In this document: piece by piece, positions 2,153-55,145 of the stretch
Layout of the letters: every line of letters starts with the position of its first letter
Numbering within the stretch: the first letter of the stretch is position 1
Notes under the pieces: generated by a model
Told to the model about the DNA's origin: nothing
Seen by the model: the letters and a program-made list of their open reading frames with translations, nothing else
The model's database searches: none
NCBI GenBank assembly: GCA_964650355.1
Contig: CAZYTL010000003.1
Location: forward strand, 65,750 to 129,749
Direction: 5' to 3'
From: an uncultured Gammaproteobacteria bacterium
GTDB taxonomy: Bacteria; Patescibacteriota; Microgenomatia; CAYXHB01; CAZYTL01
Length of the DNA: 64,000 nt
Made by a program: the position numbers and the translations under genes

Positions 2153-2324
2153 TGCTTAAATAATTTTAAAATTGCAGTATATACTCCGTAGCTGAATTTT
2201 GGTCCATGTAGATATATTCTTAGTAAACTAAGCTTCGTAGTATTATACGAGATTATATTGGCGAAGGAGTATATCTAGGCAGATTCACCCCTCATCCGGC
2301 AGCGGGCCCCGAAGTATAACCTTG

Positions 2325-2396
2325 TGGACGCGCCTGGATTCGAACCAGGGACCATTCGTGTATAAGACGAACGCTCTACCGCTGAGCTACGCGTCC
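2325..2396 (-). tRNA. tRNA with anticodon UAU (decodes AUA; Ile by sequence)
   Basis: A manual cloverleaf fits the reverse complement: 7-bp acceptor stem, D-arm GCTC/GAGC with GG in the loop, anticodon stem TTCGT/ACGAA, loop CTTATAC (U33, A37), T-loop TTCGAAT, discriminator A. CCA is not encoded. Confidence 0.8.
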
Positions 2397-2563: not shown

Positions 2564-4891
2564 CTACAGATTGCTTCTCGCCTGCACTTCCTTTTCCACC
2601 TCCGCCAAATCCCGCCCGTACTTCAACCTGCTCAACTCCTTAATCATCTCCCCCACCTTCCGATTTCGCCTCGCATCTTGTGCTGCCATATCTTTCGTAA
2701 TATCCATTGTAAATGGTGGTATCGGCTCATTCTTCACAATCGTTTTCACAAACAAATGATATTTCTCAATATTCATCAAATCCTGCTCATTAAACGTTGG
2801 CTCAAACTGCCTTACCAACACCGGCGCATCATCCGTTCCCACTCGGTAACACATCAACGTTCCCACATTCCCGAAAATCGCTCCTCTGATCTCATCATCC
2901 AACTGCCCCACAAACTGATTCGCCATCACTAAATTCAAATGATACTTCCTTGCCTCAGACAAAATCGTGGCAAAGTCCGGCGTGGCAAAATTCTGAAACT
3001 CATCCACATATAAATAAAAATCCGGTCGTTGATCTTCTGGCACGTCCGTCCGGCTCAAAGCCGCCATCAGAATCCTGGGCACTAACAACAATCCCAAAAA
3101 ATTTGCATTCTCCTCCCCCAACGCTCCCTTATTCAACCTTACAATCAAAATCTTCCTCTCATCCATCGCCTTACGAAAATCAAACGACGACGTTGACTGT
3201 CCGATCACATTCCTCATCATCTTATTCGTAATAAACCGCCCGAACTTACTCACAATATAATCCAAAATCTCCGACTTGTGAAAATCCGCCGTCTGCGCTA
3301 TCTGATCCGTCCAATATCTCCGCACCACCGGATCTTTCACCTTCGGCAGTAACTCCTGCACATACTTGGCATCCGTCTGCGTCCGCACTAATTCAATAAA
3401 CCCTCCTCCCGGCACCGCCTCCATCACCGTCAGCATCGCATTTCGGATTGCGTGCTCAAATCTCGGCCCGATAATCCCTGTCTTATGTGGATCATACAAC
3501 TTATACATCAAATTAATAATCGCCCCCGTAATAAAATGCCTTTGTTGCTCAGTCTTGGCTTCCATCATATTCATCCCCATCGGCCGTTCCGTGTCTCCTG
3601 GATCAAAATAAATCACGTCCTCAGCCCGATGCGGCGGAATAAAATTCAACAAATCCTCTGCCAAATCGTGCGGATCAATCAGCGCCACCCCTTCACCCGC
3701 CTCAATATCCTGTAAAATCAAATCTCGCAAATACTCTGATTTCCCCACACCCGTCTTCCCCACCAAATACATGTGCCTCTGTCTATCCTGCTTGCCCATA
3801 AAAATCGGCCTTTCAATCCCTCGATAAATACTCTTCCCCAAATACAAACCTGAAGTCGCAATATTTGCCGGTGCTGGCGCCCGCTTTGCCATCACCCAGT
3901 GAATATTCGGCGTTTCCACCGTCTTATTTGGAAAATGATAAATCGTAGCCAACTCATCCGTAGCCAAAATCGACTTTTGCGTCAACCAGTGAAAAACCCG
4001 CGGGTACCGATAAATAAAGTCCGTCATGAACGTATGTGGAATCCACACTCTCTGCTGCGTAAACCCGTTCAAATCTGAAGTGAACTGCTCAAACGTACTC
4101 TCAATATTCTTCAAATGCATCTCTGCCACCGTCTCATCCTTAGCGCTCACCACAATCCTCACCGTCACCTCAAATCCCGGCTTCACAATCTTACTTTCAA
4201 TCTGCTCCAGGCTCCTGGCATCCACCTTGTACTTAGCCTTCTCCGGATCCGCCTCTTCCTTCTTCGTGCTCGAAATATAATTCCTACCTCTTTTCCGCCA
4301 CTCATTCCCTGCCGGAGCCAAAATAATCTGAATCGCCGCCGCTTCCCCTTCCTTCATCTTGGCCATTGCCGAAGTCATCGAATTCAGCGGATCAGTAGCC
4401 AGCTCCTTATACGGCTTAATCGGCTTGTACGATTCGTATGACAATCCCAACTGTGCCCACGCCACTGTCCCCTCTTCAAAAAACATATTATACTCGTCCA
4501 CCACCCGCACATCCGCCCCCGGGTACGCCCCGTGAATCTGCTTCTCAATTAAATCCTGCAACTTCCTGGGTGCCGCAATATAAAACCTGATATCTCCCGG
4601 CATTGCCACCAGCTCCAGCGAAATATGCTCTGCCACCTTAGTAGAAAACATCCCCCCTGCCTTTCCCAAAGACTGAAAAGAGCTGATCATCTGCTCCATA
4701 GCGTCAATCTTGATCTCATTATCCTTGGGCACCGCAATCTGCAGCAGCACAAAGTCTAAAGCCCGCACCTCCCGGTCCTTCCATCTCTGCCAGTATAAAT
4801 ACCCGAAAAATCCCCCCGCCATTAGCCCCACAATCACACACATTCCCACCAACAACCCAAACAAAATGAATAACATCCCAATCGCATCCAT
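2564..4891 (-). CDS. VirD4/TraG/TraD-like type IV coupling ATPase (AAA_10 / TraG-D_C type)
   Basis: N-terminal TM helix. Walker A LVGKTGVGKS. Walker B-like YVDEFQNF followed by RKYHLNLVMANQFVGQL...YRVG, which resembles the TraG/VirD4 C-terminal motif. Confidence 0.55.
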   Translation of the reverse strand: MDAIGMLFILFGLLVGMCVIVGLMAGGFFGYLYWQRWKDREVRALDFVLLQIAVPKDNEIKIDAMEQMISSFQSLGKAGGMFSTKVAEHISLELVAMPGDIRFYIAAPRKLQDLIEKQIHGAYPGADVRVVDEYNMFFEEGTVAWAQLGLSYESYKPIKPYKELATDPLNSMTSAMAKMKEGEAAAIQIILAPAGNEWRKRGRNYISSTKKEEADPEKAKYKVDARSLEQIESKIVKPGFEVTVRIVVSAKDETVAEMHLKNIESTFEQFTSDLNGFTQQRVWIPHTFMTDFIYRYPRVFHWLTQKSILATDELATIYHFPNKTVETPNIHWVMAKRAPAPANIATSGLYLGKSIYRGIERPIFMGKQDRQRHMYLVGKTGVGKSEYLRDLILQDIEAGEGVALIDPHDLAEDLLNFIPPHRAEDVIYFDPGDTERPMGMNMMEAKTEQQRHFITGAIINLMYKLYDPHKTGIIGPRFEHAIRNAMLTVMEAVPGGGFIELVRTQTDAKYVQELLPKVKDPVVRRYWTDQIAQTADFHKSEILDYIVSKFGRFITNKMMRNVIGQSTSSFDFRKAMDERKILIVRLNKGALGEENANFLGLLLVPRILMAALSRTDVPEDQRPDFYLYVDEFQNFATPDFATILSEARKYHLNLVMANQFVGQLDDEIRGAIFGNVGTLMCYRVGTDDAPVLVRQFEPTFNEQDLMNIEKYHLFVKTIVKNEPIPPFTMDITKDMAAQDARRNRKVGEMIKELSRLKYGRDLAEVEKEVQARSNL

Positions 4892-5020
4892 AGCCCTAGT
4901 ATATACTACTTTTTTTTCAATTTACGAATAGCTGTACATCCCGTATGCTCCGATGACCATCGGAGCCATCGGGATAAAACATCCCCATTCCGGAGTCAGA
5001 ATCCAGCAGTCTCAACCCTA

Positions 5021-5056
5021 GGACTTCGGTGAGCCCAGTCGAACCGCTGATCAGCC
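5021..5056 (-). repeat. ~38-nt repeat GGCTGATCAGCGGTTCGACTGGGCTCACCGAAGTCC (minus orientation); second copy at 55076-55116
   Basis: About 90% identity between the two copies. Each begins with the GGCTGATC(A/G)GC palindrome core. Confidence 0.65.
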
Positions 5057-5586
5057 TTTGCCCACGGAGCCTGAATCCCTCCTCAAATTTTCCGTTTAAC
5101 CAACATTTCTTCCTGCGCATCCTTTTCCCCAAGTAGAAACTGCTTCAAAACCCGCCATATCGTTACAGGACTTACGCAGTACCACGTCATTCTGGAACGT
5201 AGCGAGAGAATCCCCTTGGAATCGAATTAGCCTCAAGGTGCATAAGTCCTGATCAGTAGTTATAAGTTCGACTTGCAATACTATAGGTTGACTTTACCCC
5301 CAAACCATGCTATACTGCTTCCATACTGTCTCCCCTACTACTCCACAATCGCGTCAGTATAAACCTGATCGCTCCCTTGTAGAGTTTTGTTCGAGACAAT
5401 ATAGCAGCTCTTTTAAATCAACAGAGCCATTCTTTTTGGTTACCTCTTTCTTGAGGCGGAGTTAACTGGATACAAGTTGTTATATCTAGTTAACTCCGCC
5501 TCGCACCAGCGCTCCCGCCCGTGAGTCTGCCCACCAAGTGGGGAGCACCAGACTCTGGGTGATATGAGGATGCGCATCTCATAAAA

Positions 5587-5594
5587 AGGAGGTG
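5587..5594 (+). promoter_or_regulatory. Shine-Dalgarno AGGAGGTG, 5 nt upstream of the GTG start
   Basis: Seen directly: aaaaAGGAGGTGacccaGTGaaaagg. Confidence 0.6.
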
Positions 5595-5599
5595 ACCCA

Positions 5600-6016
5600 G
5601 TGAAAAGGTTAACTTTTCTGCTCGTATCCCTGCTCGCCGTAGGGCTGGCGGCGTTCCTGGGCCTCATCGCCCGACCCGCCGCCCCGGTCCAGGCTCAAGG
5701 GCCAGGATACACGTGCACAGGTCAAGGCTATGCCTACCAGTGCACGTATTCTGACGACGCCCGTGAGGCAATCAGGCAGCAACGCCGGGAAGAAATCCGC
5801 CAGGCCGCCGAAAACTTGGTAGATCCCAATACCTGGTGGGACGTCCAGACCCAAGGCGGCGGCACCTGGCAAGAGCAACAGGGCTGCGGCATCTTGGGAT
5901 GTAGAAACCCCAACTCCGGTCAGAGTTATACGTGTGGTGACACGTACAACACGTATACTTTCAAGCCGACCGGGGCCCAACACACCACCCGATCGACCAG
6001 CTGCAAGAAAAACTAG
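5600..6016 (+). CDS. small secreted cysteine-containing protein (signal peptide, 6 Cys), on a compositionally foreign island
   Basis: GTG start with a strong SD. N-terminal signal peptide MKRLTFLLVSLLAVGLAAFLGLIARPAAPVQAQG. The mature ~100 aa carries 6 Cys. Codon usage is G-rich, unlike neighbouring plus-strand genes. Confidence 0.55.
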   Translation: MKRLTFLLVSLLAVGLAAFLGLIARPAAPVQAQGPGYTCTGQGYAYQCTYSDDAREAIRQQRREEIRQAAENLVDPNTWWDVQTQGGGTWQEQQGCGILGCRNPNSGQSYTCGDTYNTYTFKPTGAQHTTRSTSCKKN

Positions 6017-6031
6017 GTGGTGTGCACCCAG

Positions 6032-6058
6032 GCTACTTGATAGTGCTCATCAAGTAGC
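6032..6058 (+). terminator. perfect 10-bp stem hairpin (GCTACTTGAT-agtgctc-ATCAAGTAGC) just after the 5600..6016 stop
   Basis: Inverted repeat seen directly. No T-tract follows it. Confidence 0.3.
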
Positions 6059-6072
6059 TATCGACTATCAGG

Positions 6073-6158
6073 GCCACTCTGGCAACACAGATCGCTTTGC
6101 TGCAACTTACTAAAGTGCAGTAAAGTGCCTGTAAGTTCAGAGTGGCCTTAATTTTTTT
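6073..6158 (+). terminator. long-loop hairpin (GGCCACTCTG ... CAGAGTGGCC) followed by TTAATTTTTTT; candidate rho-independent terminator
   Basis: 10-bp inverted repeat with a ~55-nt loop and a downstream T-run, seen directly. Confidence 0.3.
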
Positions 6159-6246
6159 CACAACGGATAGTCCCTCTTCTACCCTAATTTAGACCTCCCA
6201 CCTCTCACAGACAGAACACCAATTCCTCAAATCTCCAAACCATCTC

Positions 6247-6618
6247 CTATCCTCTAAAAAACACCTTTTCCCCCAACTTCTTAATCATGTACGCACACCA
6301 CTCCGCCAGCCACCGTGCCCCTCTGATAATCGGTTCATGCAACCCCACCTGAAACTCATCTTGGGTCATCGGCAAAATCACCGCATCATCCGGCAACTGA
6401 TAATCATCCGTTTGCGGAGCCGGCTGCACCAGCGGCTGTCCTTGGTCATCAGTGGGCACCGGACCAGCCTTCTCCCCTGCCTTTTCCACCTTCTCTATAT
6501 ACCCTTCCACCCCAGCCTCCATCTCCGGCTCTTCCTCTGCCGACTTCACCACTTCCTGCACCGGAATCTCTTCAATTTCCCTATTTCCCTGGTTATCCCG
6601 CTCCGGAGTATCCACCAT
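6247..6618 (-). CDS. hypothetical acidic protein
   Basis: 123-aa ORF whose coding strand has host-like composition. No recognisable motif. Confidence 0.35.
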   Translation of the reverse strand: MVDTPERDNQGNREIEEIPVQEVVKSAEEEPEMEAGVEGYIEKVEKAGEKAGPVPTDDQGQPLVQPAPQTDDYQLPDDAVILPMTQDEFQVGLHEPIIRGARWLAEWCAYMIKKLGEKVFFRG

Positions 6619-6723
6619 TAACTAAATAATACCATTAATTGCCCCACTGTTACATGGCCCCATTGTCATGATTATCATAAATCAGACCACCCTCCATATT
6701 ATCAATGAAACCATGAAGCCCAA

Positions 6724-7605
6724 TTATCTCATCTGGCTCTGCCAGACACTCTCCTCTTCCTCCATCAACCAATTCGCCCACCTATTCGCCACGAACAAAT
6801 AATCCGACAGCCGATTAAGATACCTTAAAATTGCTTCATTGCTCAATTGCTCAATTGTTAAACTGCTCTTTAAGTTTTTAGCTTTAAAATGTGGTTTTGA
6901 GTTTTTAACTTTACGCTTTAAGTTTAAAAAACGAACGAATTCTCGTTCGGTCCTCCGGCATACTGATCTTACCACCATTAACTGTGCCCCGATCACCCCA
7001 CCTCCGGGTAAAATAAACTGATCCACCCGCGGCAAATCACCTTCCATCTCATCAATCAACTGCTCTAACTTACCCGCATCAAACGGCTGGTATTTATCCA
7101 TCTCTTCAATCCTTTTCTCCTCCTCACCTCTATCTTGTCCTTCTGCAGGAAAGCTTTCCCCTCCCCTATCAGACTCTCTGTCTTCCTCTCTCCGGCCCCG
7201 AACAAACTCTTCAGCCATCCTCCCCATTTCCCCCCGGAAACTCAAACCTTTCTCTTCCTGTGCTTTCCTGCTCTTTTGCTCTTTTGCTCTTCTGATCCTC
7301 TGATCTTGTGGTTTCATGGTCTTTGCTAATTCTGCACCCATCTCAAACAACTCTCTTTGCACATCCCGCAACTGTCCCACCAATCTTGCCAAACCGATAT
7401 CGAGATTCTTTCCACCATCTTGCATTTTAACTTTTGCATTTTGAATTGCCATGACACTCTCCGTCATCGCCACTGCTAAGCCCAAACTGGAATTGAGCTC
7501 ATCGACCGCACCAATCACCGCCATCTGCATACTTCCCTTACTCACCCGTCGCCCTCCGATCAACCCCGTTTCCCCTTCATCTCCGGTTCTGGTATAAATC
7601 GCCAT
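6724..7605 (-). CDS. PduO-type ATP:cob(I)alamin adenosyltransferase homolog with a ~100-aa charged insertion
   Basis: N-terminus MAIYTRTGDEGETGLIGGRRVSKGS...AIGAVDELNSSLG is typical of the PduO/MMAB family. The central K/E/R/Q-rich insert is partly encoded by tandem GCTCTTTT-type repeats at 7270-7308. Confidence 0.75.
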   Translation of the reverse strand: MAIYTRTGDEGETGLIGGRRVSKGSMQMAVIGAVDELNSSLGLAVAMTESVMAIQNAKVKMQDGGKNLDIGLARLVGQLRDVQRELFEMGAELAKTMKPQDQRIRRAKEQKSRKAQEEKGLSFRGEMGRMAEEFVRGRREEDRESDRGGESFPAEGQDRGEEEKRIEEMDKYQPFDAGKLEQLIDEMEGDLPRVDQFILPGGGVIGAQLMVVRSVCRRTEREFVRFLNLKRKVKNSKPHFKAKNLKSSLTIEQLSNEAILRYLNRLSDYLFVANRWANWLMEEEESVWQSQMR

Positions 7606-7802
7606 ATATAGGATATTTTAACAAAACATCTCCCAATTGACATCTAACAATTACCATTTAACTCTAAAAACTGCCCCTAACGACCTAACAATTACTTATC
7701 CGCTTTTGACAGTTCAACATATTCCCAACCTCTCCCTGAGTATCTGATACCTTTCCTAAATCATTCTGGATTCTGAATTCTAAATTCTATATCCTATACC
7801 TA

Positions 7803-8039
7803 GTGTTCTCTTGTCCTTACGCCCCATCCTACACCCTTTGGGAACGTCTCACCGGTAAAACCGCTGACTATTCCCGGCTCTCCTGGATCGAACGACTCTT
7901 CGGCTATCCCACTATCTGTCGCACCCAAATCTATCTCCAAATCGGCATTATCGTCCTCATCATCTTATTCACCGCCGTCCTCATCTGGTTCAAATACATC
8001 CGCAAACGCTACTACTACCCTCCTCCACCCAAAAAGTAA
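7803..8039 (+). CDS. small membrane protein (hypothetical)
   Basis: One TM segment IGIIVLIILFTAVLIWF. Host-like C-rich coding strand. Confidence 0.35.
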   Translation: MFSCPYAPSYTLWERLTGKTADYSRLSWIERLFGYPTICRTQIYLQIGIIVLIILFTAVLIWFKYIRKRYYYPPPPKK

Positions 8040-8118
8040 ACGCAGCTTCTCAAAGACCTCACCGCTAACTATCCTCTCAAAGCTTCCACTAAAAAACTGC
8101 CCGCCATGGTGAATACCG

Positions 8119-8158
8119 TGGATCAGCCTCTGGCTGAAACGAAGCTATAAGCAATAAG
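8119..8158. repeat. intergenic copy: GGATCAGCCTCTGGCTGA + AGCTATAAGCAATAAGCT
   Basis: Same composite arrangement as at 35337, degenerate. Confidence 0.65.
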
Positions 8159-9565
8159 CTACTTCGGATACAACTTTCGCAGATCAGCATCATACTGTTG
8201 CCAATTCTCTTGCCTCAACTGATCAAACTTCGCCCAAATTCTCCGGTACGTATCCTCATACTCCCTCTCCAAATACCCTGCCCCGGACACACTTCCCCTT
8301 TGCTCTCCAATATACAACCTCAACCTATCCATATAGTTCAGTGCCCGTAAATACTGCACATTCACACACTGCCCGTAACCGCTCAAATTATCCAAAATAC
8401 ACCGGTTCACCTGGTCCCATAGCCTGATCGCCTCTGCAGACAGTACCAGCGCCTTTTCCAACTCCTCTCGACTATTCGCGGCGTAATATCGCCCTCCGCC
8501 CGATTGCGCGATCAACTCCAACTGCTGCTTCTCCTCTTCGCTCACTACCAATCCCACCACATTCGTCACCACTTCTATCCCTGACTCATTCAACTGCTCG
8601 GCCACCTGAATCGGGTCCCCTCCGCACGTCTCCTTACCGTCAGACAATAAGATCACAAAATTCTGTGCTGCTTCTTTACCTCTTAATAAACTCCCCGCCA
8701 TCTCCAAGGCCTTGGCAATCCCTGTCCACCCCGCCGGCTTAATCCCCTGTACTAAACTCTCAGTTGCTGGCACATCCACCGGCCCTAGCGGCTGCACCAA
8801 CTCCACCCCTTCGCAAGATGCCTGCTTATCTGCCTCCTCAGAACTTCCTTTATGTCCGTAAACAATCACCCCTACATTGGCAAAACTCGGCAACCCGCTA
8901 TCCAGTAAATCCAACAACGCTTTCTGCGCCGAATCCCACTTTGTCACCCCTTCTAACTTATCCCCCATCGATCCTGAAGCATCTAACAAAAACAACAAAT
9001 TGATTTCCAACCTGGCCCTGGGCACCGTAGGAAAGTCACCACATCCCAACTGTCTCACACAGTCATTGGCATTCGCATCATACCCCAAAATCTCTTCCAG
9101 CCGGTCCGGCAAGGCATCCCCGTCGTTATCTACTCCCAACTCTTCCTTAGTCAGCAACTGCACTTCCTCCCCAGATCCCTCCACCACTGACTCTCCCGTT
9201 GGCTGCGCAGACGGGGTAGCCACCTGCTGTCCCGCTGGCCGCGTCACTTGAGGAGCTGGCAGCAACCTTCCCAACACCACAAATCCTACTCCCAGACCTA
9301 AACTCACCATCAAAATCGAAAACAGCATTGCCTTCGGTCCCTTTGACCTATGCTTTCCTGCCGCCCGCACCGGTGCGCTTACCCCTCCCCCTTGCGACTT
9401 TCCCCTTCCTAGACTGGCCACCTTCGGCAACTCAATCTTCGGCAACCCCTTCTGCCCAATACCTGCTCTTCCACTATCACCCGTATTCCCTGCGCCCTCA
9501 GCAGGGCTTGTTTTCACCCCTGGATCATTCCCTGTTCCCTGTTCTTGTGAATCATTCTCTGCCAT
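8159..9565 (-). CDS. von Willebrand factor type A (VWA) domain membrane protein
   Basis: MIDAS-like LLFLLDASGSMG...ILLSDGKETCGG. N-terminal TM helix after a Gly/Ser-rich leader. Confidence 0.7.
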   Translation of the reverse strand: MAENDSQEQGTGNDPGVKTSPAEGAGNTGDSGRAGIGQKGLPKIELPKVASLGRGKSQGGGVSAPVRAAGKHRSKGPKAMLFSILMVSLGLGVGFVVLGRLLPAPQVTRPAGQQVATPSAQPTGESVVEGSGEEVQLLTKEELGVDNDGDALPDRLEEILGYDANANDCVRQLGCGDFPTVPRARLEINLLFLLDASGSMGDKLEGVTKWDSAQKALLDLLDSGLPSFANVGVIVYGHKGSSEEADKQASCEGVELVQPLGPVDVPATESLVQGIKPAGWTGIAKALEMAGSLLRGKEAAQNFVILLSDGKETCGGDPIQVAEQLNESGIEVVTNVVGLVVSEEEKQQLELIAQSGGGRYYAANSREELEKALVLSAEAIRLWDQVNRCILDNLSGYGQCVNVQYLRALNYMDRLRLYIGEQRGSVSGAGYLEREYEDTYRRIWAKFDQLRQENWQQYDADLRKLYPK

Positions 9566-9631
9566 ACCCCTACTTTAACCCAACCAATCTCGGACTCGCA
9601 ACCCGTATGTATGACAAATCTTCAATTGCCA

Positions 9632-10468
9632 CTAGCCTCCCCCACTCGATTTTGCTCCACTTACATTGGTTGACCATTCCAATACTCTCTCCAATGCCTT
9701 CTCCATCGCCATTTCCCAAAAAGTCACATGCTTCTCTCGTTCCTTATCCAGTAAACCTTTCACCTCTTTTAATGTCATCTCCCATTCCGGGATATAAAAC
9801 ACATGATCGAGTGGCGCTCCCATCACCATTTCCCCTCGTGGTTCCGTCAACATCACTCCCCGCATCCTCCCATCAACATACTCCACCTCTCCCTCTTCTC
9901 CCCTTGTTATCTGCTCCATCTGTCCCTTATCTGTTTCCATCTGCCTGCCCGCCGTAACTTTAGTGTTGGCGGGTGTGCTCTCCTCTTGCTTTGCAGGAGG
10001 AGGAAACAACAATCCCACCACACACCGCCACTCTGCTCCCCGCGCCTCCGGAGGTATCGCCTGCATCCGCTCCAAACAATACTCTACAATCTCCTCATCC
10101 CTCATCACCGTTACCCCGTCCCTCCATCTCCTCATCAGCGCTCCCGGCTCTCGTCCCAAAGCATCAATACTCAAACCTCTCTCTTCCGCCATAATTATAT
10201 AATCGTCATTCCGTAAAGCCGTTGCTTCGTTAGATTGTTCCTCTGTATTTTCCTCTCGCTGTTTTTCGACTCTTAAGCTCTTTAGCCTCACCTCATACAT
10301 TCTGCACCTCACTGCCACATTCGCCTCCAACGTCCTCCCCGTATCCGGCAAATCTATCTCTATCCCCAACTCCTTCGGCATCTCCACCTCCACCTTATAC
10401 TTACCAAACCTCTCCCTTACCTCCAACAACTTCTTCTTATCCTCTGTCACATAGAGAACCTTGACCAT
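9632..10468 (-). CDS. Ham1/RdgB-like non-canonical purine NTP pyrophosphatase paralog with a ~100-aa acidic insertion
   Basis: N-terminus LYVTEDKKKLLEVRERF and C-terminus TEPRGEMVMGAPLDHVFYIPEWEMTLKE...ALERV align with the clear Ham1 gene at 43932..44480. The central insert is low-complexity. Confidence 0.5.
   Translation of the reverse strand: MVKVLYVTEDKKKLLEVRERFGKYKVEVEMPKELGIEIDLPDTGRTLEANVAVRCRMYEVRLKSLRVEKQREENTEEQSNEATALRNDDYIIMAEERGLSIDALGREPGALMRRWRDGVTVMRDEEIVEYCLERMQAIPPEARGAEWRCVVGLLFPPPAKQEESTPANTKVTAGRQMETDKGQMEQITRGEEGEVEYVDGRMRGVMLTEPRGEMVMGAPLDHVFYIPEWEMTLKEVKGLLDKEREKHVTFWEMAMEKALERVLEWSTNVSGAKSSGGG
9986..9998. repeat. palindrome variant CTTGCTTTGCAGG, in-frame in the Ham1-like paralog (PPPAKQEE)
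   Basis: Degenerate copy sharing the GCTTTGCAG core. Confidence 0.55.
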
Positions 10469-10647
10469 TAACTTAATAATAACACTCTATACCTCTGCCC
10501 CAAAGAACATCGGGACCATCCGTGTACAACACCTTAACTCCCCCCACCCAGCCCTGTCCTCAATGCGTCCATTCCATCAGCATCTGCACCGGCACCAAAG
10601 ACCCTATTTGTAAAAACTGCGGTTTCAAAGACCCCTGCTGTGACTGG

Positions 10648-11139
10648 CTATTTTCTTTCTTTTTTATAATTCCCCATCTCCGGTATCACATACCTCACCC
10701 CTCCCCGAGGATCATCCATATCGCCCTCATACCTGGGAATCACATGCCAGTGCAAATGATCCACTGTCCTGCCTGCAGCCCGGCCATCATTCACGCCATG
10801 ATTATAAGCATCCGGCTTAGTATTAATCCTCGGATGTTTCAACGCCTGCGTGCAGAACCAAATTGAATTATCATTAAAAGGATTTTCTAAAAAACGCTTG
10901 TATACTTTCCTTAAGTCCTCACTTAAAATACCCTCAATTACCCTGTCTATTGCATTTTTTAAATCCGTCCATTCCTCTCTCGACAACCCTTTCAAATCAG
11001 GCACATGTCGCACAGGGAAAACTAACGCATGACCTGGAGCCACCGGAAACGGCTCAAATATAGCTATCCATTTATCATCCCGCCAGATAACAATCTCATT
11101 CGGTTTCAAAACACAAAAAGGACAATTCCTTACCATCAT
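10648..11139 (-). CDS. HIT-family (histidine triad) nucleotide hydrolase/transferase
   Basis: HLHWHVIPR histidine triad motif. Confidence 0.8.
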   Translation of the reverse strand: MMVRNCPFCVLKPNEIVIWRDDKWIAIFEPFPVAPGHALVFPVRHVPDLKGLSREEWTDLKNAIDRVIEGILSEDLRKVYKRFLENPFNDNSIWFCTQALKHPRINTKPDAYNHGVNDGRAAGRTVDHLHWHVIPRYEGDMDDPRGGVRYVIPEMGNYKKERK

Positions 11140-11194
11140 GAATCTCTGTTAATATAAACTGACCCCATCATATCACCAATAGTAGACCCAAACC

Positions 11195-11662
11195 ATGAAT
11201 CAAACCCTTCTCCGCATCGCCCAAAAAGGCATCATCTTAAACCAAACCAAAACCAAAATCCTGGTTGTAAAATACTCCACCGCCAAATACACCTCACAAA
11301 AGGTCAAAAACAAACTCGGATTACCAGGCGGGCAAATAGACTTCAGCGAGACCCCTGACGAATCATTTGTCAGAGAAGTAAAAGAAGAAACCGGCATCAC
11401 GATCGTTCCTCTCCTTCCTTTCCATATCTATACTTGGACATACCAAACTGAAACCCACCTAAAACAAATCATCGCCGTCGCCAGGCTCGGAATTTATCAA
11501 TCTGGAAAATTAACTACTCACAAGCAAGAAAGGGAAACCACTATAGAGTTTTCCCAATGGCTACCCATTAAAGAACTTCAACCCAAAGGGTTTATCATTG
11601 ATGAACAGCCCGTCATCACCAAATTCCTTCAATACCAAAAGCAAAATCCCTTCTCTCTTTAA
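11195..11662 (+). CDS. Nudix hydrolase
   Basis: Canonical Nudix box GLPGGQIDFSETPDESFVREVKEETGI. Confidence 0.75.
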   Translation: MNQTLLRIAQKGIILNQTKTKILVVKYSTAKYTSQKVKNKLGLPGGQIDFSETPDESFVREVKEETGITIVPLLPFHIYTWTYQTETHLKQIIAVARLGIYQSGKLTTHKQERETTIEFSQWLPIKELQPKGFIIDEQPVITKFLQYQKQNPFSL

Positions 11663-11683
11663 TCATCCAGCCCACTAATAGCT

Positions 11684-12112
11684 TTACTTCGGTACTTTCC
11701 TCTTCCTCCTCTTCGTCACCACTTTCTCTAACTCTAGGCGCATTCTCTCCAATTCCTCATCCGTCATATCTTCTGCATCCATAAACCTGTTCCTCGCCGG
11801 CTTTATTGACCGAATCATCTCATCCAACTTCAAATGAATCGCCTTCGAATCCCGATTCTGCGTATTCTGAATCAAAAACACCATCAAAAAGGTCACAATC
11901 GTCGTCCCCGTATTAATCACCAATTGCCATGTATCCGAAAACCCAAACATCGGTCCCGTTAACAGCCACACCACAATCACCATCACCGCCAACATAAACA
12001 CCCGAGAAGTTCCCGCCAACTCCGCCACCTTCTTGGCAAACTTCCTAAACACATCATGCACCCCATTATGACTCTCCGTCGCCATCATTACTTCTAAATT
12101 ATGGTTTGTCAT
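11684..12112 (-). CDS. small membrane protein, low-affinity iron permease-like (Fet4/PF04120-like)
   Basis: Two TM helices and the conserved-looking WQLVINTGTTIVTFLMVFLIQNTQNRD...HLKLDEMI. The family assignment is from memory of bacterial Fet4-like proteins. Confidence 0.5.
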   Translation of the reverse strand: MTNHNLEVMMATESHNGVHDVFRKFAKKVAELAGTSRVFMLAVMVIVVWLLTGPMFGFSDTWQLVINTGTTIVTFLMVFLIQNTQNRDSKAIHLKLDEMIRSIKPARNRFMDAEDMTDEELERMRLELEKVVTKRRKRKVPK

Positions 12113-12124
12113 AAAACCAGTTTA

Positions 12125-13102
12125 TCAAAAATCCTCTCCTTCGTCGCCTTCTAAATACTCTTCCAGCTTTCCGGCATAAATCAACGGCACCACCCCGTGC
12201 ATAATATTATTGTTACTCGGCAATTCATACCGTAAACCAGTCCGTTCAGCAATCAACAACACATTCGCCAGCCCGATTGCTGCCCCGTCCACAAACCCCG
12301 GATGAGAAGGAAACAACTTCACCCTGTCTTTCCGATCCAATAACCGCGTCCGCCAATAAAATTCCCTTGTCTTATCCAAATCCACCTTAAAAGGATGCGA
12401 CTTTGAAAAATTAAACTTCTCCATCTCCACTCCTGCCTCTTGATAAAAATCAATTACCGATGTGGACCCATGTACCAAAGGCGCCTCTCCATCGAATCTC
12501 ACCTCTAAATCAGCAATCGCCTTTCTAATCTCCTCCTCAATTAATTCAAATTCCCTTTCTGTCGCCGGATCTCCTTTAATAAACCTCTCTCGCAAACTCA
12601 ACACTCCGGTCTTCAACAACTTATAGCTCTCTAACTTCTCCCTCTTTCCCCACATAAACTGCACCGATCCCCCGCCGATATCTATGCCCGCGATCCCCCC
12701 TTTCCACTCAAAATCACTTGTCATTCCTCTCCAAAACAACTCCATCTCCGCCTCATGGCTCAAAATCCGCACCTCCCACCCCAACTTGTCCTTAATCTTC
12801 TTCACCACATCCTTTGCATTCTCTGCCTTCCTTAATACCTCCGTTCCGATCACCTCCACTCGTTCCACCTTCATCCTTTCCACTTCTGACTTAAACCTCT
12901 GCAACGCCTCCATCGTCTTTACCAACCCCTCCTCTGACACCTGATCACCCTCCTCCATCCCTCTTCCCAACCTGGTTTCCTCTTTATCTTGAAAAATCAA
13001 CTTCAAATTCCCAAAATCCTGCTTTGCAGGACCCACCTCAAATACCAACAACTTGCTGCTATTCGTTCCCTGGTCAACCACTGCCACTCTTGCCTGCTTC
13101 AT
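12125..13102 (-). CDS. Ppx/GppA-family phosphatase (exopolyphosphatase / pppGpp phosphohydrolase)
   Basis: ASKHA-fold motifs VAVVDQGTNSSKLLVFEV and GIDIGGGSVQF. Confidence 0.8.
   Translation of the reverse strand: MKQARVAVVDQGTNSSKLLVFEVGPAKQDFGNLKLIFQDKEETRLGRGMEEGDQVSEEGLVKTMEALQRFKSEVERMKVERVEVIGTEVLRKAENAKDVVKKIKDKLGWEVRILSHEAEMELFWRGMTSDFEWKGGIAGIDIGGGSVQFMWGKREKLESYKLLKTGVLSLRERFIKGDPATEREFELIEEEIRKAIADLEVRFDGEAPLVHGSTSVIDFYQEAGVEMEKFNFSKSHPFKVDLDKTREFYWRTRLLDRKDRVKLFPSHPGFVDGAAIGLANVLLIAERTGLRYELPSNNNIMHGVVPLIYAGKLEEYLEGDEGEDF
13017..13031. repeat. palindrome variant TCCTGCTTTGCAGGA, in-frame in ppx/gppA (GPAKQDF)
   Basis: Variant with C/G at the outer positions. Still a perfect palindrome. 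Confidence 0.7.
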
Positions 13103-13165
13103 TCTCCCATTATATCCGGCTCACTAAAACCTACTCAACACCACCTCTAAACTATTTACTCCTAT

Positions 13166-13600
13166 CTAAGCTGCCATTGGCAAGTCTTCTTTCATCATCT
13201 CTATCAAATCGTCTAACTCGCCTGGAAACGCATGCCTCGCATCATGCCACGTTTTCTGGGAAGCTAATTTATCAGGCTCTTTACCTCCAATAAATAAATC
13301 ATGAAATTCATACGCCAATACAGGAATTCCAGGAGTTAACCTTTCAAATTCTCTTAATTGAACTCCATCGTCCTGGAGTGAACTCAACACCTTCGTTCTA
13401 CTTTCTACTTGTCTATTAACCCGAGCAATAAAACTTGACCTACTGAAATCTCCCGCTCTAAACCAATCTCTATCAGCAATCACCGTCTTTAATAAACCCT
13501 CAAATTCAGTCAGCGAATGCTTTGCCTCCATCACCTCACCAAGAGTCGGCTCACCCATTTCTACCACATTTTCCGAACCAACTACTGGAAGTTCTCCCAT
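13166..13600 (-). CDS. hypothetical protein
   Basis: 144-aa ORF with host-like composition and no motif. Confidence 0.35.
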   Translation of the reverse strand: MGELPVVGSENVVEMGEPTLGEVMEAKHSLTEFEGLLKTVIADRDWFRAGDFSRSSFIARVNRQVESRTKVLSSLQDDGVQLREFERLTPGIPVLAYEFHDLFIGGKEPDKLASQKTWHDARHAFPGELDDLIEMMKEDLPMAA

Positions 13601-13694
13601 ACTAAAACATAGTATAACTTAATTACCTCTTCACCAGCAACTGCGATTTCGTACAAAATCTCTAACTCCGCCTCTAAACTCATCCTCAGCACAC

Positions 13695-14105
13695 TCACAT
13701 CTCCAGCTCATCTTGCCAATAAGCCTCTACCAAATTCTTAGTATTCGGCGAGACCTCATTCTCCATCTCCTTTAACTCCTGCCAGGAAAAATAAGCCAGC
13801 TTATCAAACTTCTCTTTTTCCTTGGTCTCTGGTTTCCCATCCTCTACCTCAGCTAAATACCACACATAACCCATCGTGTATCCGTCTTCTTTAAAATCCG
13901 CTCTTCCCAGTTCCTTCACTATCTCCACCTTTACTCCCAATTCTTCCTCCACCTCCCTTTCCGCCGCCTCTTCGGACCCTTCTCCCTCTTCGATCTTTCC
14001 GCCCGGCGTTTCCCACTGCACTCTCTTAGGAGTATTCCTATGCAACAACAGCACTTTACCGGCCCCATCTAAAATCACGCATCCAGCCAACAAAATCTTA
14101 TCCAT
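13695..14105 (-). CDS. Nudix hydrolase
   Basis: Nudix box GGKIEEGEGSEEAAEREVEEELGV. Confidence 0.75.
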   Translation of the reverse strand: MDKILLAGCVILDGAGKVLLLHRNTPKRVQWETPGGKIEEGEGSEEAAEREVEEELGVKVEIVKELGRADFKEDGYTMGYVWYLAEVEDGKPETKEKEKFDKLAYFSWQELKEMENEVSPNTKNLVEAYWQDELEM

Positions 14106-14263
14106 GTTCCATATTGTATACTACTTTACTTTCACTTCTAAATAGTAGTATATACTCAGTAGCCTCAAACTAACTTAAATTCTAACTCCTCAAATCAAGT
14201 GAAAACTCCGTAATATGTACGAATTTCTTAACTTTTAAGCGAAGGAGTATACACCCTAAATCC

Positions 14264-14806
14264 TTAAATCTGCACTTCCCTTCCCTTCGTTGTATCCCTC
14301 CCTCCTTGCCACTGACCTCTGTACAAATTCACCGCCTCTCCTTTAATCTCTACAAAAAACACCTGCACAAACCTGGCCCCCAATTCCATCTCTACCGAAA
14401 TATTTCCCGCATTAAACATTCCAAAATACAACGCTCCCCTATACCCGGGATCCGCAATCCAAGCTCTCAGCATCAAACCGCTCCTCACTGTCGTCCCCCT
14501 AGGCTTGATTATTGCCGTTATATTCTTGGGCAAATCCACCTCTTCAATCGTCTTAGTCAAATAATACTTACCCGGCTCAAACACAAACTTCGTCACCCTC
14601 TTCGGATCATAAGCCGCCAACTCCACCAGATCAGGCGTCTCCCGTTCCTCAATCCCGATAAACGCTTTCCCTTTCAATTCAAATACCTTATCCAACCGCA
14701 AATCAAACACACACCCTTCAGGACTCTCCAATTCCCTTTCCGCCAATCCCGTCACCAAAGCATGTTTCTTCATTAACTTTCGCAATTCCGAATGTCCCAA
14801 AATCAT
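14264..14806 (-). CDS. dUTPase/dCTP-deaminase-fold protein, paralog A (lacks the Dcd catalytic Glu)
   Basis: VFDLRLD, KPRGTTVRSG, DPGYRGALYFGMFN, RFVQVFF and YRGQWQGG align to Dcd/Dut motifs. GMFN replaces the TLExxN motif, so the Glu is absent. Confidence 0.65.
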   Translation of the reverse strand: MILGHSELRKLMKKHALVTGLAERELESPEGCVFDLRLDKVFELKGKAFIGIEERETPDLVELAAYDPKRVTKFVFEPGKYYLTKTIEEVDLPKNITAIIKPRGTTVRSGLMLRAWIADPGYRGALYFGMFNAGNISVEMELGARFVQVFFVEIKGEAVNLYRGQWQGGRDTTKGREVQI

Positions 14807-14907
14807 AAACTACATTATATATTCCCCATACTCTAAATGCGGAACAATTTATCTATCCCCAAATACCCTCTATTTTTAGAATCCTAATTCCATTATATAA
14901 TTAATCC

Positions 14908-15831
14908 ATGGAAACTGTACCCTTGAAAGAAAAAGTTATAAAAACAATCAGACCACAAGAGATAACTAATTTATTTGAAAAATTTCCAGTAGGCAGCTTT
15001 GGCGAAAATTTTGACCAATTTAGTCTAAAAGATGCTGTCTCGGCCAGATATAAACAGGTATTTCGCCGTAAAGGATATCGAGCATTAATGAATGAAATTA
15101 ATCAACAAATCGATCAAGGAACCGAATCATATGAACAAGAGGCAGTAAAACACTTAGAAAGAATAAGATCAAACGTAGAATACATCCAAACTGACGAAGT
15201 ACAACAAATCGCTCACGAACTAACAGAGAAACAACCAAATTTAGATCCCAAATGGTTGTTGGATGACGCTTTATCCGGACGACAGATGGATCAAATCATC
15301 CACACTGACGAGCGAGGTCGGAGAATTACTCGGTTCAGGCTACTTGATAACTATAGGCCACAATCAAATAGAAACCAGCCTCTTTGCGGTTTCAACTTTC
15401 CTCCTTTACACGGAGAGCATTCAAATATCACGGCTCTCTTTGTAAATGGTGAGCTAGACGAATTACAAACAGGAGGAATTTCCCATATCAACAGCCTAAA
15501 ATTCGAAAACGGTCAAGTAACTTCTCTTTCTTATTCTGGCGTAGATTGGTTTGATACCTCTGAAGAAACCATCAAAGCGAAACATAGATTACCAGACAAA
15601 GTCCAATTACAAAAATTTGGAAATTTCTTTACACTTCATTTCCCGGAACTAGTGTCCCAAACTGCGAACTCCCGAACCTTCAGACTCAAAGCGTCTCCTA
15701 TGTGGAAAGACACAGGCCACAATCAACCGCAAGAAAATACTTATACAGTTACCTTAAACCAAGATGGGCAGATTACAGAAATTAGAAACGGATGGGATAA
15801 ACCTCTCCTCACTCCGGCAACCGCCAGTTAA
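14908..15831 (+). CDS. hypothetical protein on an AT-rich compositional island
   Basis: 307-aa ORF with no recognisable motif. Composition is AT-rich with balanced G/C, unlike flanking genes. Confidence 0.45.
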   Translation: METVPLKEKVIKTIRPQEITNLFEKFPVGSFGENFDQFSLKDAVSARYKQVFRRKGYRALMNEINQQIDQGTESYEQEAVKHLERIRSNVEYIQTDEVQQIAHELTEKQPNLDPKWLLDDALSGRQMDQIIHTDERGRRITRFRLLDNYRPQSNRNQPLCGFNFPPLHGEHSNITALFVNGELDELQTGGISHINSLKFENGQVTSLSYSGVDWFDTSEETIKAKHRLPDKVQLQKFGNFFTLHFPELVSQTANSRTFRLKASPMWKDTGHNQPQENTYTVTLNQDGQITEIRNGWDKPLLTPATAS

Positions 15832-15974
15832 ACTAGTTAAACTCTACACTTCGCAAGTACTCCATCCGCTCACCTTATACTTCCAACACCTAGTCTCCTT
15901 TCCTTTTATCTCACTTCTGTTTAAATCGTTTCTTCATTAGACATAATTCCCCTATCAAGCTACAATAAATTCCA

Positions 15975-16811
15975 ATGCTTCCTCTAGACCTTCAATACCA
16001 AAAAATACTCCGCCAACTCATGACCAAAGGCATTGAAGAAACCAACCAACGCACCGGACACCAAACCAAAAGCCTTCCCGGGATTACCGTCCAAATCGAT
16101 CTCCGACACAGCTTCCCCTTACTCACCTTGCGAAAAATACCCATCAAAATCTTCGTCGCCGAACAAATCTGGTTCATCATGGGCAGCCGCCGGCCCGACG
16201 AATTCCTCAAAGAATTCACCGGAATCTGGGACGATTTCACCAACATTGGAGGCGTGGTTACCGTTGCCTACGGCTACCGCATGCGCCACCACTTTGGTAG
16301 AGACCAACTGGCCTTACTCATTAAACTGCTGGAAAAGGACCCCAGTTCTCGCCACGGAGTTATTGTCTTCTGGGACCCGGGTGATGACGGACTCGCCCAA
16401 AGCAGAAAAAAGAAAAACGTCCCCTGTCCCTACACCTTCACCACCAATATCATCGGCGGACAACTGCACTTCCATTTAATTGTTCGCTCCAACGACATGA
16501 TTCTAGGTTTTCCTCACGACTTAGCCGGCTTTGCTCTCCTGGCCCATATCCTAGCTTCCAGACTTGGCGTCCAACCCGGTATCTTTACCCATTCCATCAG
16601 CAACGCTCATGTTTACGACATCCACTATTCAGCAGCCCAAACCATGATCCACAGAAAAATTAATCACCCCCCCATAAAACTTACCACCCAACCTGACTAC
16701 TTCTCCCGCGCAGAACATGGAGATCGCACCCTGGTCAGTGGTATAGTAAGTCAGTTACAATCCCAATATCATCCCGGCCCACCCATCAAAGGCCTCAAAA
16801 TCGTCTTATAA
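15975..16811 (+). CDS. thymidylate synthase (ThyA) family enzyme; predicted deoxycytidylate-specific methylase/hydroxymethylase rather than canonical ThyA
   Basis: ThyA-fold motifs RTGHQT, DPSSRH and catalytic Cys in VPCPYTF. VRSNDMILGFPHDLAGFALL aligns to E. coli [20 protein letters not shown]. Asp sits at the Asn177 position, and the RSND motif matches T4 gp42 RSNDVVFGFRND. Confidence 0.8.
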   Translation: MLPLDLQYQKILRQLMTKGIEETNQRTGHQTKSLPGITVQIDLRHSFPLLTLRKIPIKIFVAEQIWFIMGSRRPDEFLKEFTGIWDDFTNIGGVVTVAYGYRMRHHFGRDQLALLIKLLEKDPSSRHGVIVFWDPGDDGLAQSRKKKNVPCPYTFTTNIIGGQLHFHLIVRSNDMILGFPHDLAGFALLAHILASRLGVQPGIFTHSISNAHVYDIHYSAAQTMIHRKINHPPIKLTTQPDYFSRAEHGDRTLVSGIVSQLQSQYHPGPPIKGLKIVL

Positions 16812-26018: not shown

Positions 26019-26352
26019 AATTCAGATTCTTACCAATCTTCAACTTAGAAACGCCTTTTGACTCCGTAACGAAACTACGAAATAACAACGCTACGATTTT
26101 TTTACGAAATTTTCCGGTGCACTTTCTATTATCTCACAACCGCGCAAGGGGGAAAAGCCTATATACCCGTAAAAAACCCGAACAACAACCCTTTAATCTG
26201 CTCATCTCAGTCCAAATAAATCCCAATTGATTGCCTAACCAACCACTAAAAAGGCCGTGAACAAAAACGTTCACGGCCCATGATCATCAGGAATTCTAGA
26301 CAGGGGCGGAGAGGAAGTGCGGTCCTCCCCGCCCCCAAGGGGGTAATCAGTC

Positions 26353-27186
26353 TCAAGGGACTACGATTCCCCCCCCGTCGTCGGGGCACCGCCCGTGACG
26401 GTCGGGGTCGCACCCCCCGTCCCCGCCACCGGCCGGATTCAACCCAAAGTCCACATCGAGGTAGACTTCGGGCTCGTTCAGCACCTTATAGGGTTCGGTT
26501 TGCACAACCTGAACCCCCACTCGGTGTTGGCCGTAGAATCCGGCAGGCGACCCGAAGGTCGCCTGCCACCCCGAGATCGGGGCGGGCTTCACCAGCTTCT
26601 GGAATTCGCGGGCATCATACAACCCGCGAATTTGCCCGTCAGGCGTACGTTCGACGGGCTCCCAGATGGCTGGGGACCCATCCCAGCGGAACGTCACCAG
26701 CCCGCCCCCCTCAGGGCGAACTTCGACGATCCGTGCCCCGACAACAATCATCGTGGTCGACGTGAGCGGCACCGGTGTAACCGTCGGCGGGATTGCCGTC
26801 GGAGTCGGGATGGGTGTCTCAGTGGGCGCCGGCGTCGGCGGTACTCGGGTGGGCGTGGGCGGCACTCGAGTGGCCGTTGGCGACGGAGTCGGCGTGTCCG
26901 TGGGCACCGGAGTGGGTGTGGGGGGCACCGGCGTGGGTGTGTCGGTCGGCACCGACATCGCCGTCGCCTCGGGCGTGGCCGTGGCAGCCAACCAGCTCCA
27001 ATCTCTGGTTGGCGTGGGCGGTACCGGCGTCTCCGTGGTCACAGGCACCGCAGACGCGAACTTGATAGTGATCTCGACGACCCCCGCACGGGCCGCCTCG
27101 ATCACCACCACCACCCCCATCAGGAGCACCAGAACCGCAAAAAACACCCCGAAAAACTCCATCAACAACTTCAGTCGCTTCTTCAT
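26353..27186 (-). CDS. secreted/membrane-anchored Pro/Thr-repeat protein on a GC-rich island
   Basis: Preferred start MKKRL, with SD AAAGGAGA 7 nt upstream. The track's longer ORF runs to 27243. TM anchor, PTPTPVPPTPT linker and a ~120-aa C-terminal domain. GC is very high relative to host. Confidence 0.5.
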   Translation of the reverse strand: MKKRLKLLMEFFGVFFAVLVLLMGVVVVIEAARAGVVEITIKFASAVPVTTETPVPPTPTRDWSWLAATATPEATAMSVPTDTPTPVPPTPTPVPTDTPTPSPTATRVPPTPTRVPPTPAPTETPIPTPTAIPPTVTPVPLTSTTMIVVGARIVEVRPEGGGLVTFRWDGSPAIWEPVERTPDGQIRGLYDAREFQKLVKPAPISGWQATFGSPAGFYGQHRVGVQVVQTEPYKVLNEPEVYLDVDFGLNPAGGGDGGCDPDRHGRCPDDGGGIVVP

Positions 27187-27324
27187 TTGGAGGTCTCCTT
27201 TCGAAGCGTATACGGCCACCCCTTTCGGGACAGCCAAGACCAATCACGAGAAGCTAGAGACAAAGTCAGTAATCAGGTAATTGATAATAATTAATCGTAA
27301 TTCATTGACAATCACTCCTAACAA

Positions 27325-45695: not shown

Positions 45696-45697
45696 AG

Positions 45698-55032: not shown

Positions 55033-55075
55033 CTCATCATAAAATCAAAAATCAATCCAACAATTTTCAGCCAAT

Positions 55076-55116: not shown

Positions 55117-55145
55117 CAACCGAAACAATTTAACCATTTATATCC

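Follow-up and report, generated by a model that had tools for sequence, protein, structure and literature searches.

How does a segment of about 1 kb come to lack the strand bias that pervades the DNA on both sides of it? The question is raised by positions 4892-6246 of a 64,000-nt stretch of contig CAZYTL010000003.1 (hereafter the window), which is chromosomal DNA of a Candidate Phyla Radiation (CPR, Patescibacteria) bacterium of the Microgenomates group, UBA1400-like. An earlier note, made from the letters of this DNA, had described the segment as a compositional island with a gene for a small secreted Cys-rich protein, acquired horizontally. The most probable answer, in which we have moderate confidence, is a lineage-specific insertion of a foreign single-gene cassette between a 123-aa gene and a VirD4-like ATPase gene, the product of which would be a secreted orphan protein. 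The insert has a certain length of about 1.0 kb (5162-6170), and of up to about 1.25 kb if a transition zone on its left is included.

The background against which the island stands out is a GC skew of -0.40 across the window, independent of gene orientation. The host G/(G+C) is 0.272, and genes and intergenic DNA are alike in this respect (intergenic 0.27). Third codon positions switch with orientation: minus-strand host genes have third-position G (G3) of 0.38-0.57 and third-position C (C3) of 0.05-0.11, typically about 0.5 and 0.06, and the pattern is reversed on the plus strand, where most genes show C3 of 0.41-0.55 and G3 of 0.05-0.11. A chromosome-wide disparity between G and C has already been published for the order UBA1400, in Ch65, Collierbacteria and Beckwithbacteria (Kadnikov et al. 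2020, PMC7143001), so that the host background is unusual but known. As in the window, C is about twice G on one strand of those genomes whatever the gene orientation, and there is no AT skew; that work differs in describing a genome-wide trend, whereas local skew-free islands are apparently not discussed (the words 'island' and 'horizontal' are absent from the text). Skew of 0.30-0.44 is found in five of the six closest relatives examined (identity of the VirD4-like protein 66-82%; the disparity was noted among L082-L086 and L091) and of 0.11 in L090, and it is 0.27 or less in more distant Microgenomates loci (VirD4-like identity 62% or less). Since close relatives share the extreme skew, it is older than their divergence. 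Two segments depart from this background:

5162..6170, no strand: core skew-free island, the maximum-likelihood segment (G 244, C 280; 44.6 nats against the host G/(G+C) of 0.272).
4892..5160, no strand: left transition zone of intermediate composition, with an 18-nt-arm hairpin at 4938-4975, a copy of a conserved motif, and folding z -3.5.

The likelihood segmentation and the composition of the sub-regions agree that strand bias is lost here, as had been claimed. G/(G+C) reaches 0.44 in 5161-5599 (p=1e-7 against the host), 0.47 in the open reading frame (ORF) of the island (p=2e-11) and 0.49 in 6017-6165 (p=8e-5), so that the composition does differ significantly from that of the host. Summed over bins, G makes up about 22% of 4900-6199. 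The loss had been placed directly after the ATPase start; it is real, and its right end is sharp, lying at about 6165-6166 straight after a T-run and followed by host-like DNA (6166-6246, G/(G+C) 0.14), but it sets in less abruptly than proposed. The left edge is gradual, 4892-5160 being borderline against the host (G/(G+C) 0.34, p=0.05), and this zone could belong either to the insert or to the native spacer. Skew is equally strong in host genes and in host intergenic DNA, and consequently the G/C balance of the island is not explained by its being non-coding.

The island lies between two genes that are kept in relatives:

2564..4891, minus strand: left flank, VirD4/TraG-like ATPase gene (DUF8128), 775 aa; its Pfam matches to TrwB/TraG-D_C are weak, and DUF8128 was precomputed on homologs.
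6247..6618, minus strand: right flank, 123-aa gene, in most relatives the immediate upstream neighbour of the VirD4-like gene; tblastn matches to it adjoin VirD4 in many loci.

The order CobAT (cobalamin adenosyltransferase), 123-aa gene, VirD4 is found in L082, L084 and L085 (VirD4 81-82% identical) and in L090 (68%), and in these four of the six closest relatives the gap between the 123-aa gene and VirD4 is 45-106 nt, against 1355 nt here. The short gap is present in three of the four nearest relatives (VirD4-like protein 79-82% identical), and in 69 relatives the nearest ORF of at least 70 aa lies a median of 30 nt from the start of VirD4. The 123-aa protein itself is 52-67% identical in L082 and L084-L086, and 47-58% identical in L090 and L091. 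When the island was compared by blastn with the six closest relatives, the only matches were to the 123-aa gene and nothing from 4892-6246 was found. The flanks are thus kept while the segment is missing, and no homolog in the same context was found in these six genomes. The ATG of the VirD4-like gene is preceded, at a distance of 6 nt, by a -10-like TATACT box (4903-4898), and a box of the TATACT type is found just before this ATG in the four closest relatives examined as well (L082, L084-L086), which indicates that the insertion left the proximal promoter of the gene intact. Judged against all the comparators at hand, the segment is an insertion, and the reading that it is recent and foreign is well supported.

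The same junction holds other, unrelated small genes in two relatives, namely an 83-aa Cys-containing ORF in L086 (1000-1445) and three small membrane-protein genes in L091 (4669-5912), and it is thus a recurrent variable spot. This observation would also suit a gene that is native and fast-evolving, or that arose de novo at a variable intergenic spot, with no horizontal acquisition, as would the lack of a donor, a homolog and mobility signatures. We consider such an origin very unlikely. Host DNA that had become a gene de novo should show the host disparity and no Shine-Dalgarno (SD) sequence, whereas the island has G/(G+C) of 0.44-0.49 against 0.27, a G+C content at third positions (GC3) of 0.70 and a canonical SD. 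Furthermore, the junction inserts of L086 and L091 keep part of the host skew (0.16-0.44), while the island keeps almost none.

A second possibility bearing on the junctions is an assembly chimera, in which the island would have been mis-joined to the VirD4 side at a repeated motif around 5009-5065. An independent Logan contig (L001) is 100% identical over window positions 5009-16016 (11 kb), and this assembly of the same genome ends precisely at 5009, beside the conserved motif, which speaks for a mis-join. The same contig covers the right junction and reproduces it, with the 11 kb beyond, base for base, and the order CobAT, 123-aa gene, VirD4 around the island is exactly that of the relatives. 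A chimera is accordingly hard to credit.

The earlier note had called the VirD4-like protein a coupling ATPase. The gene is kept in more than 80 Microgenomates loci, and its homologs in metagenome-assembled genomes (MAGs) of the Gottesman-, Levy-, Woese-, Roizman- and Daviesbacteria types number in the thousands and usually lie beside the same Xer-type integrase; so widespread a gene belongs to the conserved chromosome and does not mark a conjugative element. The neighbourhood of an integrative and conjugative element (ICE) was considered and rejected, as the VirD4-like, 123-aa and Xer-type integrase genes make up a conserved Microgenomates chromosomal neighbourhood. Housekeeping-type genes recognized by Pfam near the island are those of CobAT, VWA, Ham1, HIT and Ppx/GppA.

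The insert appears to contain one gene with its own signals, on the strand opposite to that of both flanking genes:

5288..5316, plus strand: predicted sigma-70-type promoter of the 138-aa gene (TTGACT, 17-nt spacer, TATACT with TG extension; 10 of 12 matches plus TG).
5438..5598, plus strand: structured 5' leader domain, on which the minimum free energy (MFE) and centroid folds agree (z -8.5 and -8.7).
5587..5594, plus strand: canonical Shine-Dalgarno sequence AGGAGGTG, then 5 nt, then GTG at 5600.
5600..6016, plus strand: 138-aa ORF with GTG start, signal-peptide-like N-terminus and 6 Cys.
6003..6031, minus strand: terminator-like hairpin (6031-6013) with T-run, found by scan, overlapping the stop codon of the 138-aa ORF.
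6032..6158, plus strand: two 3' hairpins, one at 6032-6058 (10-bp stem) and a compound one at 6067-6152, followed by T7 at 6152-6158 (z -6.5).

The 138-aa ORF, its hydrophobic N-terminal segment and its six Cys are all present as described. It is probably a real gene, judging from its sequence: the spacing of the SD, the signal-peptide-like N-terminus and the distribution of G+C over codon positions together make a chance ORF unlikely. In the sense frame GC3 exceeds the first-position and the first-position the second-position value (GC3 > GC1 > GC2), and in a 124-aa antisense ORF the order is reversed (GC1 > GC3). There is no second credible ORF in 4892-6246, and consequently no linked immunity, export or maturation gene in the island. 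The 708 nt before the gene (4892-5599) hold no ORF longer than 75 aa, and the small ORFs in all six frames have no Pfam or other family match, which bears out the description of a stretch of 700 nt with no convincing ORF and gives no evidence of a pseudogene.

The predicted promoter implies a leader of about 275 nt, with the qualification that promoter-like sites in the region are no more frequent than shuffling leads one to expect. In the predicted fold of the leader a 12-bp helix closes the domain, pairing an anti-SD segment (5438-5449) with the SD region (5586-5597). The helix encloses two hairpins: one with 23-nt arms (5453-5502), in which the palindrome AGTTAACT occurs twice, and a compound one at about 5509-5575. 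The inverted repeat that had been reported as 13 perfect base pairs at about 5455-5510 is real, and larger than stated: its arms are 23 nt long (5453-5475 / 5480-5502), 91% complementary, with a 4-nt loop. An operator or repeat function of this large hairpin was considered and rejected, as its GGAGTTAACT is neither enriched elsewhere in the window nor present in IMG/VR.

At the other end of the gene the two hairpins, the second with a T-run, are as had been claimed, and they likely form the terminator of the 138-aa gene; the minus-strand site at 6003-6031 would stop transcripts from the 123-aa gene. A stem-loop followed by a U-run is found on both strands, although the hairpin at 6067-6152 is atypically long. 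Transcription of the convergent 138-aa and 123-aa genes would end in this zone from both sides, which would insulate the cassette transcriptionally from its two neighbours. With a promoter, a leader of about 275 nt, an SD, an ORF and this zone, the cassette would be autonomous.

All this structure could also be read in the opposite sense, namely that the ORF is not a gene and the island is a non-coding, hairpin-rich structured RNA or the remnant of a decayed mobile element, whose G and C are kept in balance by base pairing. Folding is well above chance over much of the segment (z -6.7 and -8.1 in 4892-5599, -8.7 in the leader, -6.5 at the 3' end and -3.75 in the ORF), and a tRNA gene of the window likewise breaks the skew locally. 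The Cys motifs of the protein coincide with DNA palindromes at 5711-5747 and 5927-5957, an antisense ORF of nearly equal length exists, and no homolog supports the coding frame. Set against this, 5150-5330 is not structured above chance (z 0.06), and neither structured nor transfer RNA families are recognized. No gathering-level Rfam match was obtained in the island, including the stretch 4900-5600 for which such a scan had been proposed; at E up to 10 on 4700-6400 there are only spurious microRNA-type matches on the hairpin, tRNA-Ile is the only gathering-level match of the whole window, and a scan for transfer-messenger and transfer RNAs found none in the island. The perfect AGGAGGTG lies 5 nt before a start codon, in a strand with six AGGAGG per 64 kb, a signal-peptide-like n-h-c N-terminus begins exactly at the ORF start, and the G+C content of codon positions fits the sense and not the antisense frame. 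A non-coding island is, on balance, unlikely.

The palindromes just mentioned have 12-nt arms and encode the Y-T-C / C-T-Y motifs of the protein (YTCT..QCTY and YTCG..); they are ACGTGCACAGGT/ACCAGTGCACGT and TATACGTGTGGT/ACAACACGTATA.

The foreign character of the gene is expressed in three independent signals, which are strand composition, codon third positions and translation signals. Third-position G in the 138-aa ORF is 0.27, against 0.05-0.11 in all host plus-strand genes (binomial p=2e-10), with GC3 of 0.70 and C3 of 0.43; the G-rich codon usage that had been called alien to this genome is alien indeed. As to translation, an SD core is missing upstream of about 45 of 50 host genes, and in 18 of 50 a TATAAT-like hexamer ends 5-12 nt ahead of the start codon, compared with 2.6% at random positions. 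This excess of start-proximal -10 boxes suggests that many host mRNAs are leaderless or near-leaderless. Examples among the regions upstream of host gene starts are 4898-4903, 6619-6640 and 13103-13125, and we found no paper describing gene starts poor in SD and with start-proximal -10 boxes for this lineage. The island gene has no start-proximal -10 box, and its SD is one of six AGGAGG on the plus strand of the 64 kb. The description of the gene as strongly SD-driven holds for the canonical AGGAGGTG, 5-nt spacing and GTG, and needs amendment in that the SD is predicted to be locked in the 12-bp anti-SD helix.

Several results weigh against the reading of a recently inserted foreign gene. A donor could not be identified: searches of phage, plasmid and IMG/VR collections gave no match to the island, blastn against phages, plasmids and 91 loci returned itself and a short motif only, and tblastn with the 138-aa protein against phages, plasmids and IMG/VR returned no match. 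There is no integrase or transposase ORF in the island, there are no terminal inverted repeats and no convincing target-site duplication, and the only flanking repeat is the 9-mer TTTTTTTCA (T7CA), which is at chance level. The left junction (4892-5009) is present in the deposited assembly alone, and the relatives are at most 82% identical, so that the time of insertion is loosely bounded. As regards the gene, an ORF of at least 138 codons occurs in 3.3% of dinucleotide shuffles (p=0.033), which makes its length alone marginal. An exhaustive phmmer search of 1.84 billion protein representatives returned the protein itself, two repeat-protein matches and no convincing homolog, and a single-sequence AlphaFold model is poor (predicted local distance difference test, pLDDT, 61; predicted template modelling score, pTM, 0.31). 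Finally, the pairing of the SD with its anti-SD is only moderately improbable (p ~0.01) and without comparative support. Set apart from these points, an origin as a miniature inverted-repeat transposable element (MITE) or a derivative of an insertion sequence (IS) was considered and rejected, given the lack of terminal inverted repeats and of a target-site duplication.

We turn to the product that the cassette would encode. By inspection, its N-terminus consists of MKR, 21 hydrophobic residues (Kyte-Doolittle up to 2.28) and PAAPVQA|QG, and the long h-region could be a membrane anchor instead of a cleaved signal. The mature part would have about 105 aa with 6 Cys, be rich in T, G, Q and Y, and have a pI of about 6.7. 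Most likely the protein would be exported by the Sec pathway, cut after VQA, and form up to three disulfides, and the idea of a secreted Cys-rich protein is to that extent plausible. BLAST and profile searches, which had been recommended, revealed no family or convincing homolog: besides the phmmer search, a word-indexed search of 5.8 billion proteins returned the protein itself only, and no match was obtained in Pfam (E up to 1), NCBIfam, PHROGs or, by phmmer, in the PDB. A Foldseek comparison of the model with the PDB gave nothing at E up to 0.001 and was dropped as uninformative.

The two repeat-protein matches concern residues 86-122, which share GxGTW...DTYxTYxF with repeats of the giant surface proteins P0002 and P0003 (38-41% identity over 37 aa). 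P0003 matches PF22352, the E-value of P0002 is swollen by the summing of 12 repeats, and the Cys are not aligned in either similarity. We take this as a motif-level lead toward a beta-rich binding module, which would not amount to homology. The resemblance to PKD-type (K319L-like) Ig-fold adhesin repeats consists in the motif found by BLASTP over 37 aa; the differences are that the 138-aa protein falls below every Pfam threshold and that its Cys have no counterparts there.

The earlier note had likened the protein to a secreted toxin, bacteriocin or effector, and a cassette for a toxin or bacteriocin directed against competitors or a host has some appeal. The protein is small, Cys-rich, lineage-specific and apparently Sec-exported, its composition is foreign, and antagonism genes are typically found in variable spots, of which this junction is one. 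It thus resembles small secreted Cys-rich proteins of the bacteriocin- or effector-like kind in the size of its mature part (about 105 aa), its predicted signal peptide, its even number of Cys (6) and its lineage restriction; it differs in having neither sequence nor fold similarity to described families, nor an immunity or export partner. No similarity to toxin or bacteriocin families was detected in any of the searches above (1.84 billion proteins, Pfam, NCBIfam, PHROGs, PDB, Foldseek), and no immunity, ABC-exporter or modification gene is present in the island or adjacent to the gene. The 123-aa gene is kept in relatives that have no cassette and is therefore not a dedicated immunity gene. 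Furthermore, the sole weak similarity, to PKD-type repeats of giant surface proteins, speaks for binding rather than killing. The identification as a toxin, bacteriocin or effector thus finds no support other than in size, Cys content and the predicted export signal, and we judge a toxin or bacteriocin quite improbable. Under the reading of a foreign single-gene cassette, the product would work extracellularly, on the cell surface or at the symbiont-host interface, as a factor of binding or adhesion type or as an antagonistic one.

The leader offers a possible means of control. Its last 160 nt would fold and pair with the ribosome-binding site, and from this SD/anti-SD helix we infer that translation could be off by default until the helix opens. 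Of shuffled sequences 0.7%, and of random host 260-mers 1%, formed a helix of at least 12 bp with the SD region. The predicted 12-bp helix that closes a multi-hairpin domain before the start codon is what the leader has in common with SD-sequestering leaders such as RNA thermometers and riboswitch platforms; unlike those, it matches no Rfam family, has no homologous leaders for covariation and shows no known ligand or aptamer features, in addition to the modest improbability of the pairing. A bolder proposal would make the gene a foreign, SD-dependent and recently captured one in a host with largely SD-less or leaderless genes, its 160-nt leader a new translational switch (responding to host contact, temperature or a ligand), its product the founder of a new disulfide-rich extracellular family used by episymbiotic CPR bacteria on their partner, and skew-free islands of G/C-disparate UBA1400 genomes a clock and marker of recent acquisition. 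We put this combination forward as speculation and think it distinctly unlikely as a whole.

Among the proteins of CPR bacteria, which are uncultured and depend on hosts, those secreted or at the surface are the main candidates for host attachment, and nearly all of them are uncharacterised. As an accessory islet, the cassette would be lineage-specific, with a single gene for an orphan secreted protein. It shares with genomic islets and 'morons' its atypical composition, its absence from relatives between kept flanks, its own promoter, ribosome-binding site, ORF and terminator, and its apparently secreted accessory cargo. It differs from them in lacking a phage or plasmid setting, an integrase, att-like repeats and any donor or homolog that could be identified. 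Compared with usual islets it is also unusually easy to see, since the extreme strand bias of the host in G and C makes recent arrivals visible at a glance.

The island at 5162-6170 is one of several foreign-looking accessory genes in the window, the two G+C-rich ones of which encode proteins predicted to be exported or anchored. The parallel lies at 26.1-27.3 kb, where a signal-anchored ORFan is likewise led by an SD and followed by a terminator. This second island (26101-27300) has a GC content of 0.63 and a skew of -0.05. Its gene (26356-27186, minus strand) has the SD AAGGAGA, and encodes a signal anchor, a Pro/Thr-rich linker and a C-terminal domain; a canonical terminator lies at 26285-26250. 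A homology search aimed at the donor returned no homologs of its protein. Since this protein is missing from the protein collection, the source annotation of the second island may be on the wrong strand. The clearest canonical SDs of the window are those of these two G+C-rich skew-free islands. In the 138-aa plus-strand gene C3 exceeds G3, and in the minus-strand gene of the second island G3 (0.47) exceeds C3 (0.30), a mirror pattern that fits partial amelioration toward the host bias. A third island (14801-15831) is AT-rich (GC 0.38) and contains a 307-aa plus-strand ORFan (orf14908; third-position A 0.40), for which no match was found in Pfam, NCBIfam or PHROGs.

That both G+C-rich islands carry SD-led orphans with exported or anchored products suggests that the flow of accessory genes into this lineage is dominated by extracellular functions, and also that foreign genes keep a translation 'dialect' unlike that of the host. 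Skew is gone in the closest relative as well, in L082 at 11000-14215, over a block with an AAA_14/DUF4143 ATPase and an AEP-type primase domain; this mobile-element-like content supports the view that skew-free islands in the lineage are foreign DNA. Their practical value would be that of markers of recent acquisition, and the cassette could be taken up in expression studies; the present analysis demonstrates no new mechanism.

The left transition zone contains the conserved intergenic motif referred to above:

5020..5065, minus strand: copy of GCGGTTCGACTG(A/G)GCTCACCG..AAGTC, co-oriented with the VirD4-like gene and about 130 nt upstream of its start.

This is the copy of what had been called a 38-nt repeat. 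The copy is present, and the length given was approximate, as 5027-5060 aligns with 55072-55105 in inverted orientation over 34 nt at 91%. The second copy in the window lies at 55066-55114 on the plus strand, and a 30-nt core of the repeat had no matches in 100 shuffles. A core of some 27 nt that hardly varies, GCGGTTCGACTG(A/G)GCTCACCG..AAGTC, is also found in three other contigs. One is L087 (8850-8897), an unskewed, CPR-like-looking metagenome contig, in which it precedes another gene for a small secreted protein; the other two are high-GC viral contigs of IMG/VR, L088 (6804-6830, minus strand), where it lies between a prohead protease and a major capsid gene, and L089 (14262-14300). It is absent from 85 other Microgenomates loci. 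The motif is co-oriented with the downstream gene in all four copies inspected (both window copies, L087 and L088), and two of the copies have a short hairpin, showing a compensatory change, in front of the motif. No Rfam match was obtained for it at E up to 10 in 4700-6400, 54950-55250 or L089. Short palindromic repeats, TCAGCCAAAGGCTGATCAGCC, at 35328-35357 and 45693-45717 share the first hairpin of the motif and may be a family resembling repetitive extragenic palindromic (REP) sequences.

Two further features of the window were noted. The tRNA-Ile gene with anticodon TAT (UAU) at 2324-2396, minus strand, shows a local loss of skew, as expected of a structured RNA; the UAU anticodon is uncommon in bacteria, in which AUA is usually decoded by a lysidine-modified CAU tRNA. 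Several housekeeping proteins far exceed their Pfam domains in length (9632-10468, 10648-11139 and 6724-7605): Ham1 has 278 aa against a profile of 186 positions, the 98 profile positions of HIT are spread over 124 residues, and the CobAT match is in two stretches, all of which points to lineage-specific insertions within conserved housekeeping proteins.

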